Of a stretch of DNA of 42,548 bases, positions 2,059 through 25,381 are shown one piece after another (position 1 is the stretch's first letter; every line of letters begins with the position of its first letter). Below the pieces are notes generated by a model. It saw only the letters and a program-made list of their open reading frames with translations. It did no database searches and was not told the DNA's origin. This DNA is from a virus (taxonomy: Duplodnaviria; Heunggongvirae; Uroviricota; Caudoviricetes): IMG/VR virus record IMGVR_UViG_2671180275_000010. One strand, written 5' to 3'. The translations under genes and the position numbers were made by a program.

Positions 2059-3003
2059 TCATTGATTCACCTCCTGCCTGTCGTCCGGCATTCGCTCACT
2101 ACAGCTTATCCAACCATCCGGAGTTACCGGAACTTGTGGAATGGCTGTCTGCTCTCGAACGTCATTAGGCGCTATAGGTTCTGCTGCCAACTGACTGGCA
2201 TATTTGTTAATGGTAACGATAAGCTCTTGCTCAGCCTCATCCAGACAATCACCGATACCTCGCCTGTCACCGTCAAAATCATCGAAATCGGCACGAATCC
2301 TGGCAACCTTCAGGATTGCGGACAACACCTCACTAGGAATTGCCGGATAGTTGGTTGACGTTTCCGCGATTTCCCGAAAATTATTGGTTGACGAATTCTT
2401 GTTTTCCCGAAAGTTTCCGGACTGAAGCATGGCGGCGCGGCAGGCGTTCCATATTTCGGCAGCAATATCGCGCTCGCTATCGGTTAATTTGTACGTTGAA
2501 ACATAGCCAGAGAGCATTTCTACGTTTTCCGGAGTTGCTTCTTCAGGCACTACCGGTGCTGGCTCACGTATTACAGGCTCGCCCATGCGTGATTCTCCCT
2601 GCGCCTCTTTCACCATGTGGTCATTGATTTGCTCCAGTCGCCGAACGTGCTCATCAGCTTCAAGCGCTCGCCGTTTCCAGATGGACAGGTCTTCACGAGC
2701 GCCCTGATATGCGTCACCGTATTCGCCGTTAAATACTGGCGCTGGCGGGGCGATGCGTCCAAGCAACTTATTTACCTCTTTCGCCATCGCGTCATATTTA
2801 TCTAAATAGCGATTAGCTTCTAAGCAGACTCGGTGCATCTGATCTGAGTTAACTCGTTTAACTGGATCTGCTTCCAATGATGCCAGTGCAATCCGTGCCA
2901 GTTCTTCCGCTTCTTCTGCTGGCAGTACAACGTTGCTACCCGGTCCGTATGTTTCGCGCCACTGCTTGATTGTCAGCAGTCGCCCTTTGGTAATAGTGAT
3001 CAT
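2059..3003 (-). CDS. Hypothetical phage protein, acidic with coiled-coil segments (possibly Ea22-like family)
   Basis: 314-aa ORF; its start overlaps the stop of the upstream gene in an ATGA arrangement (translational coupling); family assignment is from memory of prophage Ea22-like proteins only. Confidence 0.45.
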   Translation of the reverse strand: MITITKGRLLTIKQWRETYGPGSNVVLPAEEAEELARIALASLEADPVKRVNSDQMHRVCLEANRYLDKYDAMAKEVNKLLGRIAPPAPVFNGEYGDAYQGAREDLSIWKRRALEADEHVRRLEQINDHMVKEAQGESRMGEPVIREPAPVVPEEATPENVEMLSGYVSTYKLTDSERDIAAEIWNACRAAMLQSGNFRENKNSSTNNFREIAETSTNYPAIPSEVLSAILKVARIRADFDDFDGDRRGIGDCLDEAEQELIVTINKYASQLAAEPIAPNDVREQTAIPQVPVTPDGWISCSERMPDDRQEVNQ

Positions 3004-3515
3004 GCCGCGTTTCCTTCTTTCTTATTAACAATCACACCGTCATATATTTCATTAAGGTGCCCTCTCAACTCCATGCGCCTTAATGCAGATAACATGTAAT
3101 CGCATTCAACCTGCTTATTCCCGGTAAATGGCTTATCGTCAGGATTACCCCAACAGCAATTACCCCTGGGCCATCCATGTACTTTCCGTACTCTTCCGTT
3201 AACAACGTGAAGTAATCCCCAGCCGGGAGGTAAATCCTCAACTGAAATAATTTCCGGCTCACTAATAAAGAATCGCCAGTCGCCCATGCCAAGTGAGGGA
3301 TTTTTACGGAAACGCTTTTTTCTATCTGCCAACAAGTCAGCACGAGAACACTTCGCCTCTATCAGGCATGATGCTGAATTTCTGAATCCCATAGCATCTG
3401 GCTGTTCTCCGGTACTGGTTACAGCAACAAAGCGGTCATGAAAGCAAACCTTGAACCCGTTGCGCTTAAGGAACTTGTACGCAATCTGACAGAGTTCGTG
3501 GTGTGTTAACGCCAT
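3000..3515 (-). CDS. Putative PD-(D/E)xK nuclease-fold protein (MmcB-like)
   Basis: 171-aa ORF with AAGGAGA Shine-Dalgarno; contains ...QPDAMGFRNSASCLIEAKCS..., i.e. a PD...(D/E)xK-like spacing. Confidence 0.45.
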   Translation of the reverse strand: MALTHHELCQIAYKFLKRNGFKVCFHDRFVAVTSTGEQPDAMGFRNSASCLIEAKCSRADLLADRKKRFRKNPSLGMGDWRFFISEPEIISVEDLPPGWGLLHVVNGRVRKVHGWPRGNCCWGNPDDKPFTGNKQVECDYMLSALRRMELRGHLNEIYDGVIVNKKEGNAA

Positions 3516-3516
3516 A

Positions 3517-4089
3517 TCACTCTCCTTTGATGCGAATGTCAGCGACGCGTAATGCGTGTTCTAGGTCAATCAGGTAAAGCCAACTGCCATTTTCTTTAGG
3601 TATCATGACTTGTCGCTCATCTGCATTTATCGGGTGTCCATATCGAAGGTCGTAGCGAGTCGGTAATTGAACTTCCCGCGCTTCCAGTTCAGCAATACGC
3701 TTGCACCCATCAGAGATAACTCCCTCGTAATACTCGCGCTGCTCGTTGAGTTTTGATTTTGCTGCTTCAAGCTCAACGCGCAGCTTCCCAACCGTAAGCG
3801 CAATATCCTCGTTCTCCTGGTCACGGCGTTTGATGTATTGCTGGTTTCTTTCCCGTTCATCCAGCAGCGCCTGCACTACTTCAGGGTTGAAAGCTGCGAT
3901 ATAACGAGCGTTGTTCTCTGCGTTGTTCTGTCCATCAAAGCCGGTCCATTTGATAACGTCTTCACATCGTTTATCACCAGGTGTATGCACCGCATATGTA
4001 CCAGTACCAGACGAAATAAATGCGACCCATTCACCCTGTGTTGCCAGTTGCGCCGCTTTACGCAGTGCCTGATAGTCAATCTTGCTCAC
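3517..4089 (-). CDS. Ead/Ea22-like family protein (start moved to in-frame GTG preceded by AAGGAGG)
   Basis: Track ORF 3517..4125; GTG at 4089 has a strong SD and overlaps the stop of the upstream 79-aa gene (GTGA); N-terminal ...IDYQALRKAAQLATQGEWVAF... resembles the conserved N-terminus of prophage Ea22-like proteins; coiled-coil C-terminus. Confidence 0.5.
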   Translation of the reverse strand: MSKIDYQALRKAAQLATQGEWVAFISSGTGTYAVHTPGDKRCEDVIKWTGFDGQNNAENNARYIAAFNPEVVQALLDERERNQQYIKRRDQENEDIALTVGKLRVELEAAKSKLNEQREYYEGVISDGCKRIAELEAREVQLPTRYDLRYGHPINADERQVMIPKENGSWLYLIDLEHALRVADIRIKGE

Positions 4090-22984: not shown

Positions 22985-23026
22985 AAAAACCCCGTTTGTT
23001 GGCTGCAAGCGGGGTTTTGTGTTTCC
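22985..23026 (+). terminator. Terminator-like hairpin downstream of R
   Basis: AAAACCCCG ... CGGGGTTTT stem followed by GTGTTT. Confidence 0.35.
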
Positions 23027-23054
23027 TGACTCTGGAAAAGTCAAAGGAGAAAGT

Positions 23055-23192
23055 GTGTTTGATTTTAGCAAACTGATTCGGGAGATTCGAGTGATGGCTG
23101 AAAAATTATCCACCTGGAAGTTCATTCTTATCTGGCTGGTGTTTGTGATTATGGCCTCCGGTTATTTCATCGGTCAGATACGCTGGTGGTGA
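23055..23192 (+). CDS. Small hydrophobic protein (45 aa) between R and Rz
   Basis: GTG start 5 nt after AAAGGAGA SD; hydrophobic core WKFILIWLVFVIMASGYFIG; stop lies 1 nt before the Rz start codon. Confidence 0.4.
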   Translation: MFDFSKLIREIRVMAEKLSTWKFILIWLVFVIMASGYFIGQIRWW

Positions 23193-23193
23193 A

Positions 23194-23661
23194 ATGAACC
23201 GCGTACTGTGCGTGGTCATCATTGCCCTGCTGGTGGCCTGTGGTGCGCTTAGTCTGGGGCTGAATCATTACCGTGATAACGCCATAACCTACAAAGAGCA
23301 GCGCGATAAAAAAGTCAGTGAGCTGGAGCTGGCAAATGCAACCATTACTGATATGCAGCAGCGCCAGCGTGATGTTGCTGCACTTGATGCCAGATACTCG
23401 AGGGAATTAGCCGATGCGAGAGCTGAAAATGAAACTCTTCGCGCTGACGTTGCCGCTGGTCACCGCAGCCTGCGGATCAACGCCACCTGTCCAGGTCCCG
23501 TGCGTGAAGCCACCGGCACCGCCCGCGTGGATAATGCAACCGGCCCCCAACTGGCAGACACCGTTACACGGGATTATTTCACCCTCAGAGAGCGGCTGAT
23601 GACGATGCAGAAGCAACTGGAAGGGGCACAGGACTATATCCGCACTCAGTGCCTGAAATAA
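23194..23661 (+). CDS. Rz: Rz i-spanin
   Basis: 155 aa; N-terminal TM helix and coiled-coil periplasmic domain; contains embedded Rz1 frame. Confidence 0.85.
   Translation: MNRVLCVVIIALLVACGALSLGLNHYRDNAITYKEQRDKKVSELELANATITDMQQRQRDVAALDARYSRELADARAENETLRADVAAGHRSLRINATCPGPVREATGTARVDNATGPQLADTVTRDYFTLRERLMTMQKQLEGAQDYIRTQCLK
23414..23599 (+). CDS. Rz1: Rz1 o-spanin lipoprotein, embedded in the +1 frame of Rz
   Basis: 61 aa; lipobox LVTAAC, proline-rich mature part. Confidence 0.75.
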   Translation: MRELKMKLFALTLPLVTAACGSTPPVQVPCVKPPAPPAWIMQPAPNWQTPLHGIISPSESG

Positions 23662-24011
23662 GTTTTGCTGATGCGCGGTATTGTCGCCGTATCCCCGCAT
23701 TAACAGAGACCGCAGCCCGACAGGGAGACTCCTCTGCGCGAGTGTGCGGGGATAATCAAAAACGATACACACCGGGGTTTACCGCGTTAACGGAGCGCGG
23801 CGTTGTCCCCTCATAGTCGCCTGTCCGGTGCGATGGTGGAAGAAGCCGGATGTTTATCACTATTAATTGATGACACAGAAATGGATTCATTGAATTTCAG
23901 CACGTTTTTGTATTCGTGTTATTGAACATCTGTTTATTTTACTTTTAACATATTGATAATAAAAAGAGCTGTAAATCTTTAGATGAGTCGATTTTGTCCG
24001 GGGAAGTTCAA

Positions 24012-24152
24012 ATGGATTTTATGCTGACGGTTTCTGGTGTGGTTATCCTGTCCATTGCTTATACTGCAGATAAATATGGCTGCCATTTGTTATCACGTAT
24101 TGGCGCTTATTGTTCGTTGATGCTGATTTTCTCGTCGCTTTTTTTTGAGTAA
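24012..24152 (+). CDS. Possible small membrane protein (about 46 aa)
   Basis: Hydrophobic ORF in the AT-rich Rz-cos region; weak SD; not in ORF track. Confidence 0.2.
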   Translation: MDFMLTVSGVVILSIAYTADKYGCHLLSRIGAYCSLMLIFSSLFFE

Positions 24153-24284
24153 GTTATATTAATTATAACAAATAATTTTCTGTGTTATTTTTTCAGGCTA
24201 TCCCGTCAGAGGGGAAGCCTGTACTGCCAGGGAGCGAATGGAAAACTGATGTGTCCGGTAACTGCGTGTTCTGTGAACACCATG

Positions 24285-24470
24285 TTACTTAATTATGTAA
24301 TTCATACCCGAACTCTCTGTTGACAGCCTTCTTCTGCAGGCTTCAATAACCCACGCTGAAAAGTTTCCTGAACCTTTCAGATCAAGAGCGATGTTAATTT
24401 GTTCAATCATCTGGTTTGGAAATCGGATGTTGCGGGTTGTTGTTCTGCGCGTTCTGTTCTTTGATGACAT
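24285..24470 (-). CDS. Ribbon-helix-helix (Arc/MetJ/CopG-like) DNA-binding protein
   Basis: 61 aa; beta-strand/helix/G-x-S turn/helix pattern (RNIRFPNQMIEQINIALDLKGSGNFSAWVIEACRRRL); GGGGAA SD; inverted repeats (TGACGCAG ... CTGCGTCA) in its upstream region. Confidence 0.55.
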   Translation of the reverse strand: MSSKNRTRRTTTRNIRFPNQMIEQINIALDLKGSGNFSAWVIEACRRRLSTESSGMNYIIK

Positions 24471-24676
24471 AATGTTTCCCCATATTCAGTGTTGCTGATT
24501 TGTATTATCAGAAGTTGCTTTTACGTTAATTTGACGCAGATCAATTAATACGATACCTGCGTCATAATTGATTATTTCTCGTGGTTTGATGGCGTACACA
24601 CATGTTGTGATAAACCTTATATAGATGATAATCATTATCATTTCGTGGGTCCTTTCCGGCGATCCGACCGGTTACG

Positions 24677-24688
24677 GGGCGGCGACCT
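24677..24688. other. cos: cosN cohesive-end site (GGGCGGCGACCT), lambda-type; flanking cosQ/cosB region about 24600-24870
   Basis: Twelve-base sequence identical to the lambda cohesive end, in lambda-like context (CGCGGATTTTCACTATTTATGAAAATTTTCCGG) just upstream of Nu1. Confidence 0.8.
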
Positions 24689-24871
24689 CGCGGATTTTCA
24701 CTATTTATGAAAATTTTCCGGGATCCATGTCCGGTTTCTCTGCAAGTTAACCATATGAAAAATATAAAAACATGCTTTCCATGAACCGGACATGCGCAAA
24801 AAATAGACACTAAAACCGGACATGACCGGTTTTGTTGTGATTGTGAGGTGAGAGTTTTTGCGAGGTGAGGA

Positions 24872-25381
24872 GTGGCTACGCAGACTGAAGTTGCCAGGCA
24901 TTTAAGTCTGACCGATCGCCAGCTTCGCAGATTGCAGAAATTGCCGGGTGCCCCGATATCGAATAAGCGAGGGCAACTGGATCTGGATGCCTGGCGCGAT
25001 TTTTACATATCGTATCTGAGAAGAAGTAAAAACGATGTGCCTGATGGCGATAGCGAAGACGACTATGAGGAGAAATTGCTTATTGCCAGATGGGAACTGA
25101 CAGCAGAACAGGCTGTTACACAGCAGTTAAAAAATGAGGTGTCAAAAGGAAAACTTATTGACACCGGGTTCTGTATTTTTGCCCTCAGCAAGCTGGCAAT
25201 GGCGTTATCCAGTACGCTTGATTCCATCCCTTTATCCATGCAGCGACAGTTTCCTGATTTAACTCCGCGCCATCTTGACCATCTGAAAACCCTTATTGCG
25301 AAGGGGGCAAATCAGTGTGCGCGGGCGGGGGATAAATTACCGGATTTACTCGATGAATATATCAGAGCAACAACTGAATAA
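24872..25381 (+). CDS. nu1: Terminase small subunit (Nu1-like)
   Basis: 169 aa; C-terminal block FCIFALSKLAMALSSTLDSIPLSMQRQFPDLTPRHLDHLK aligns with lambda Nu1. Confidence 0.9.
   Translation: MATQTEVARHLSLTDRQLRRLQKLPGAPISNKRGQLDLDAWRDFYISYLRRSKNDVPDGDSEDDYEEKLLIARWELTAEQAVTQQLKNEVSKGKLIDTGFCIFALSKLAMALSSTLDSIPLSMQRQFPDLTPRHLDHLKTLIAKGANQCARAGDKLPDLLDEYIRATTE

Follow-up and report, generated by a model that had tools for sequence, protein, structure and literature searches.

Just ahead of the cohesive end site cos in a lambda-like phage genome stands a small gene that runs against the direction of the late operon, and it raises two questions: is it a passing cargo or a resident of the locus, and what might its protein do? 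The genome is a virus of the class Caudoviricetes (IMG/VR record IMGVR_UViG_2671180275_000010), of which the whole stretch of 42,548 nucleotides is called the window. The interval between the lysis gene Rz and cos (23662-24676) holds the gene for a protein of 61 amino acids (aa), which an earlier note, made from the letters alone, had described as a lone ribbon-helix-helix (RHH) regulator carried as AT-rich cargo in the place of the lambda gene bor. We find that the gene is real and, by its family matches, a member of the already named YlcI/YnfO (DUF3950) family. We lean towards the reading that, within a mosaic interval, the YlcI-type protein is a stand-alone RHH regulator that would act at a block of inverted repeats upstream of its own start codon.

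Positions 23500-24900 are 99.9% identical to a prophage of Escherichia coli O104:H4 strain 2009EL-2071, for which RefSeq gives the gene order lysis protein (Rz), 46-aa hypothetical protein, 'YlcI/YnfO family protein' and terminase small subunit.

Identity and conservation of the gene

The gene and its translation signal are located as follows.
24285-24470, minus strand: YlcI/YnfO-family (DUF3950) gene, 61 aa, predicted ribbon-helix-helix protein (Pfam/NCBIfam/PHROG)
24477-24481, minus strand: Shine-Dalgarno-like GGGGA, 6 nt ahead of the ATG, read from the sequence

Both the minus-strand open reading frame (ORF) and its Shine-Dalgarno sequence are present as they had been read in the earlier note. 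The protein scores 67.5 bits against PF13132 (DUF3950; cut-off 25) and 35.2 bits against NCBIfam NF041551 (YlcI_YnfO_N; cut-off 30), which makes it a member of the YlcI/YnfO family by both models; it also matches phrog_949, and all 20 of its 20 aligned relatives match PF13132. Curated cut-offs of hidden Markov models (HMM) place YlcI of DLP12 and YnfO of Qin, both from E. coli K-12, in the same family. As the gene is already catalogued, it does not amount to a new kind of system.

The reading frame is a real gene under strong purifying selection. Over the first 50 codons of 17 distinct alleles the ratio of nonsynonymous to synonymous changes (pN/pS) is 0.10, and the third codon position accounts for 30 of the 43 variable sites; between the window and lambda, pS is 0.55 and pN 0.043. 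Residues 1-50 are conserved and are followed by a variable, low-confidence tail, of which the alleles bear at least 5 unrelated kinds. Among relatives down to 33% identity, I15, R16, I25, F37, V41 and C45 are invariant and F17, N36, S38, A39, W40 and A44 nearly so, in an IRF(P) strand motif and an NFSAWV..AC motif. Lambda-type loci all retain the ribosome-binding site (RBS), as GGGG(A/C)AAC or GGGACAAC; the loci of prophages with an HNH-type packaging module have a different one, AGAGGAAAG, and their homology to the window stops at 24479, 9 bp before the ATG. In K-12, ybcW-ylcI has been listed from RNA-seq as a convergent overlapping transcript pair (PMC12288877), which indicates that ylcI is transcribed there. 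A search of the literature for ribosome-profiling support in lambda turned up nothing useful.

Conservation in related prophages, on which the earlier note had made its reading depend, was found in lambda, DLP12 and Stx prophages. The lambda homologue has 64 aa, lies about 200 bp from cos (48109-48303, complement; 2710-2904, minus strand, of locus L003) and is 90% identical over 52 residues, the homology ending after codon 52. Two lambda reference records that were examined, NC_001416 and J02459, leave this strongly constrained 64-codon gene unannotated; several newer lambda-like records annotate it. The gene occurs as well in 434, HK629, HK630, DE3 and many Stx phages and prophages. YlcI of K-12 is likewise about 90% identical to the window protein in residues 1-52 and then has an unrelated C-terminal tail; the tail of the window protein ends in ...STESSGMNYIIK and that of lambda in ...TSEKRAYTSIKSDEE. 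Like the window gene, ylcI of DLP12 is the last gene before cos, divergent from the nohD/Nu1-type gene, and has the same repeat block and Fur box beside it. The lambda homologue holds the same place relative to cos and has an identical 40-bp repeat core. By these comparisons, the 61-aa gene is the conserved last gene before cos.

Composition of the interval between Rz and cos

Alignment to related loci indicates that the interval is a mosaic of three pieces, which follow Rz.
23194-23661: Rz, with a match to Pfam Phage_lysis; the gene ends at 23661
23671-23857, no strand: GC-rich module, apparently non-coding, directly after Rz in many lambdoid prophages
23858-24284, no strand: AT-rich variable segment with a 46-aa ORF, GC down to 33%
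24285-24676: conserved cos-proximal block of lambda-type phages, which encodes the YlcI/YnfO (DUF3950) protein opposite the late operon

The first piece is 95-97% identical to loci that lack the rest of the interval: it lies directly 3' of Rz in locus L006, which has nothing else of it, and in locus L005, which is without the AT-rich part. The second is found in O157-type prophages with an HNH-TerS-TerL packaging module (L001, L004) and lambda, L005 and L006 do without it; 730 of 5426 E. coli genomes contain at least 80% of 23662-24290. Within the third piece, 24285-24479 is common to the window and the HNH-type phages, and 24336-24676, with the first 45 codons and the DNA upstream of them, matches the right end of lambda at 86.5% identity. 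Similarity to lambda DNA is confined to Rz and this last stretch. The interval had been called AT-rich over its full kilobase; that holds for about 23850-24650 only, where GC reaches its lowest value of 33%, and not for 23662-23850, with 52-60% GC.

The bor question can now be answered for each piece. That bor is not in the interval was borne out: none of the scanned ORFs matches the Bor family, the RefSeq annotation has just the 46-aa and 61-aa genes at this place, and the lambda alignment agrees. The replacement of bor applies, however, to the variable part (23662-24284) and not to the 61-aa gene, because lambda and DLP12 carry bor or borD plus a homologue at the same spot; in lambda, the 90%-identical homologue has the same position and orientation as the window gene. 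In DLP12 the order is rzpD-borD-ybcV-ybcW-ylcI-cos-nohD, so that bor, ybcV and ybcW lie downstream of ylcI, where the window has them replaced. As judged from these gene orders, the real 'cargo' is 23858-24284, which fills the place of bor-ybcV-ybcW in lambda and DLP12.

Predicted fold of the protein

We consider the RHH fold likely for the 61-aa protein. An AlphaFold2 (AF2) model based on 20 relatives (mean pLDDT 72) has an extended stretch at residues 13-18 followed by helices at 19-32 and 37-55, a predicted strand-helix-helix topology of about 45 residues, like that of Arc and Mnt of P22, CopG, omega, ParD and TacA. In hhalign, RNIRFP is aligned in register on FNLRWP of Arc, with a probability of 1.2% and an E value of 0.04 for Arc/Mnt; this puts a predicted N-x-R-aromatic-P strand motif in common with Arc. 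A weak PHROG match points to a HicB-like family (E 0.012), and the structural matches of the predicted YlcI-type protein all fall within the RHH fold.

Several results speak against the assignment. Foldseek gave no match in the PDB, and its best match in BFVD (E 3.9) is not significant; none of the 20 family members matches an RHH family of Pfam at E<=1; neither the protein nor the family profile found anything relevant among PDB sequences; and the ribbon strand is unassigned in the AF2 monomer model. A profile search of 5.8 billion proteins returned, among the best 120 matches listed, only DUF3950 proteins. The RHH claim of the earlier note is thus supported by the predicted topology and by the register of the Arc motif, and finds no significant RHH match by sequence, profile or PDB search. 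In our opinion, the DUF3950 family can now be placed provisionally in the RHH fold. The protein would then be a DNA-binding dimer with residues 13-18 (RNIRFP) as its ribbon, in which N14 and R16 may point to the DNA and I15 and F17 into the core, as probable counterparts of N11/R13 and L12/W14 of Arc.

The repeat block and the proposed role

Upstream of the gene lies the element at which we think that the protein may act.
24532-24572, no strand: interleaved inverted repeats, candidate operator or leader, 41 bp, 62-102 bp upstream of the start codon
24532-24539: arm A, TGACGCAG
24540-24547: arm B, ATCAATTA, followed by 9 nt
24557-24564: arm A', CTGCGTCA
24565-24572: arm B', TAATTGAT

The earlier note had described nested repeats with a spacer of 18 nt; both of its 8-mers are there, but they are interleaved instead of nested and the spacer has 17 nt. 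Positions 24536-24575 are identical to lambda at 40 of 40 sites, and also to DLP12, so that this non-coding block outdoes the synonymous sites of the adjacent gene in conservation (40/40 against a pS of 0.55). Arms B and B' are invariant among 18 upstream variants. Arm A of lambda is TGATGCAG, and the distance from the repeats to the Fur box is 7 bp shorter there. The motif has no further clustered copies elsewhere in the window. The block is found only where ylcI adjoins a lambda-type cos, and it would therefore be a part of the lambda-type gene unit; phages phi80, N15 and HK225 and locus L006 keep the homology from 24625 rightwards and are without both the block and ylcI. Most simply, the pattern of conservation suggests the operator or promoter-proximal region of the lambda-type gene.

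We accordingly picture YlcI as a small transcription regulator that stands alone and would be produced by the lysogen, from a promoter of its own in the stretch from 24471 to about 24625. The place where it would most likely act in lambda-type phages is the invariant 41-bp interleaved repeat, from which it might regulate its own gene plus whatever else is transcribed through the site.

Four observations run counter to this proposal. Arm A has a C/T polymorphism (plus strand), uncompensated, in about half of the loci, including lambda. The HNH-type prophages have a protein of about 90% identity with no trace of the repeats upstream, for which reason the repeats are not a universal operator of YlcI. 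Promoter scans gave no convincing sigma-70 promoter on the minus strand, the best candidates there matching at 8 of 12 positions, one of which is AATAAT at 24571-24576, whose -35 element is poor. Finally, no functional study or experiment on ynfO, ylcI or other DUF3950 members was found in the literature.

Two candidates from this region were discarded. An ORF of 51 aa upstream of the gene (24486-24641, minus strand) is not taken to be coding, as almost all nucleotide changes alter a residue and the start differs in lambda. An apparent module boundary exactly at the repeat block in locus L008, a viral contig, proved to be an insertion of the IS3 family, of which a transposase gene fragment (3514-3840) stands at the cos-side edge of the block and parts ylcI from cos.

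Neighbours and distribution of the family

The YlcI/YnfO family is small, with 106 representatives at E<=0.001 among 1.84 billion proteins, and its genuine members come from Enterobacterales and one Pasteurella satellite. The neighbour of the gene is ybcW in lambda and DLP12, the 46-aa ORF in the window and in O157 phages, and nothing in L005. In satellites with integrase and primase it is the sole gene on the opposite strand, and some homologues are chromosomal, beside genes for a TonB receptor, cytochrome bd or fimbriae. No toxin-sized or other conserved, co-oriented partner was found across lambda-type, HNH-type, satellite and chromosomal loci, and PADLOC gave no match. The survey agrees with the earlier description of a lone regulator without a toxin-sized partner. 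In this the YlcI gene differs from those of Arc and Mnt: it has no partner comparable to ant or to a toxin, and its protein has no significant sequence or profile similarity to theirs.

Alternative explanations

The alternative that survives best is that the repeat block is a nucleic-acid element and not an operator of YlcI: a plus-strand hairpin that, as a terminator or stability element, would halt plus-strand transcripts of the prophage ahead of cos, or a structured 5' leader of the ylcI messenger RNA. Folding of the plus strand gives a long hairpin (-15.8 kcal/mol, z -2.4) with UUAUUUCU after it; for the minus strand the values are -13.6 kcal/mol and z -2.2. Both strands thus give moderately stable folds, which keeps a role as terminator or leader in serious contention. 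Where arm A has T in place of C, as is common, plus-strand RNA still pairs as G-U and the minus strand has A-C, and the HNH-type loci manage without the repeats. The z-scores are modest, however, and the loop is long (9-17 nt); loop and spacer bases are conserved too (40/40), which is more in keeping with a protein-binding site than with a simple stem. Phages that have lost ylcI but retain the same cos have lost the block as well, and a search of 23500-24950 against Rfam at permissive thresholds gave chance-level matches only, with none for the repeat block or the AT-rich segment. We regard this explanation as possible, if rather unlikely.

The next alternative, which we find improbable, gives YlcI and the upstream block a part in DNA packaging or in packaging conflicts, either as an architectural protein near cos or as a factor for or against satellites. 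It would account for the place of ylcI just ahead of the packaging module, whether this is a Nu1/A cos or HNH-TerS-TerL, and for three protein clusters (P0206, P0235, P0237) in which DUF3950 is fused to a Terminase_2 small-subunit domain. YlcI/YnfO proteins have also been listed in capsid-forming phage-inducible chromosomal islands (PICIs; PMC13612085). Against it, phi80, N15, HK225 and L006 do with a lambda-type cos and without the gene and block, and some homologues are in chromosomal, non-phage contexts. In cosmids, about 200 bp of cos (cosQ-cosN-cosB) are enough for lambda packaging, and we count this too against a packaging role.

The last alternative concerns the small reading frame of the AT-rich segment.
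24012-24152, plus strand: 46-aa hydrophobic orphan ORF, RefSeq hypothetical protein WP_000347013.1

This ORF, which the earlier note had given as a possible membrane peptide on the other strand, is present and hydrophobic, and has GGGGAAG as its RBS. It forms 13 near-identical clusters among 5.8 billion proteins, of which all those with a named source are from E. coli; it has no family match in Pfam, PHROG, NCBIfam or PADLOC. Among 28 variants there are 5 substitution sites, and in 6 of the variants insertions or deletions in a T-run shift the last codons. From these alignments we consider it an orphan of putative coding status. That it is a toxin and the RHH protein its antitoxin is very improbable: the peptide is small and hydrophobic and has an RBS, but the two ORFs run towards each other with 132 bp between them and hence form no operon, most ylcI loci (lambda, DLP12, L005) entirely lack the peptide segment, and its only relatives are near-identical copies with frame-shifting variants. 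More generally, the neighbours of YlcI/YnfO genes differ in every context, and an antitoxin role of the family is therefore unlikely.

A predicted Fur box beside cos

The elements on the cos side of the repeat block are as follows.
24621-24645, no strand: Fur-box-like palindrome ATGATAATCATTATCAT (24625-24641), two overlapping 19-mers
24648-24654, plus strand: cosQ-like GGGTCCT
24677-24688, plus strand: cosN cohesive end GGGCGGCGACCT; the right end of lambda aligns up to 24676
24872-25381: Nu1-type gene, start at 24872

The Fur box had been overlooked in the earlier inventory of the interval. It is a predicted site, in which two overlapping 19-mers match the 19-bp Fur consensus GATAATGATAATCATTATC at 15/19 and 14/19 positions, and its place is on the cos side of the repeats, some 35-55 bp to the left of the nick in cosN. 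In K-12, a Fur site upstream of nohA has been shown by gel shift, and a site upstream of nohB is a predicted cluster of 25.3 bits, a prediction only (Chen et al. 2007, PMC2189734). The window palindrome aligns with homologous DLP12 sequence and stands at a matching distance from the Nu1-type gene. Allowing for the offset between genome versions, the published nohB coordinate fits the DLP12 palindrome. A Fur-like element is also present left of cosN in L006 (2 mismatches) and phi80 (3 mismatches), with a similar one in HK225; since these phages are without ylcI, the element belongs to the cos side, a neighbour of the YlcI gene module that lies outside it. A promoter-like TTGTGA-16-GATAAT on the plus strand (24605-24632) overlaps the Fur box. 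By what is known of lambda cos, the 7-mer GGGTCCT would be cosQ, and the phi80 record labels the homologous stretch 'cosQ; aka R4 region'.

A bolder version of the proposal, to which we give little credence, is that YlcI is an overlooked regulator of lambda and its relatives that acts at the repeat block, possibly with host Fur bound 60 bp away, and might govern how the lysogen transcribes across cos, or else affect packaging or satellite interference. If this were true, a functional regulator that nobody has studied would lie 200 bp from the right end of lambda. The gene, its repeat block and the known Fur site beside cos pose a cheap and well-defined experimental question in the best-studied phage.

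Minor observations

Around Rz, a 57-aa ORF (23019-23192, plus strand) with a hydrophobic C-terminal stretch stops 2 nt ahead of the Rz start and is unannotated in the O104:H4 RefSeq record. The ORF 23649-23816, labelled 'Rz-like spanin' through PHROG, was ruled out as coding: among 28 variants the substitutions fall 6/9/8 on the three codon positions (a hand tally of the per-position table), and because third-position bias is absent the PHROG match is probably an annotation artefact. An inverted repeat at 23690-23699 and 23745-23754 was dropped as unconserved, being broken in 27 of the 28 variants.

Among the family members, the P0206 fusion is found in a small element with integrase and primase (4714-5103 of L091), whose other genes all lie on the other strand. 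In the Pasteurella phage Pmp7 (3001-3159, plus strand, of L088) the DUF3950 ORF lies antisense within a longer ORF, annotated as 'transcriptional repressor', and the same overlap recurs at about 3001-3204 in PICI-like elements of Klebsiella, Enterobacter, Xenorhabdus and Serratia (L181, L177, L164, L147); of each overlapping pair of calls, one is probably wrong. Copies of 90% identity also appear in assemblies of unrelated taxa, such as Streptomyces, Cohnella, Pseudomonas, Pedobacter, a Nanosynbacter metagenome-assembled genome and others (L105-L131, L134-L137, L158, L165). They sit on short, ~3.5-kb or ~48-kb contigs and are almost certainly contamination with lambda control DNA; many 'ena' protein matches are error-ridden reads of the lambda homologue region.

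On the far side of cosN, three copies of CATGTCCGGTT(T) occur at 24726-24737 (plus strand), 24784-24794 (minus) and 24813-24824 (minus), arranged like R3/R2/R1 of lambda cosB and different from them in sequence. The Nu1-type protein matches Pfam Phage_Nu1 over residues 49-150 only, and together with the three copies this suggests a cosB/Nu1 specificity different from that of lambda.
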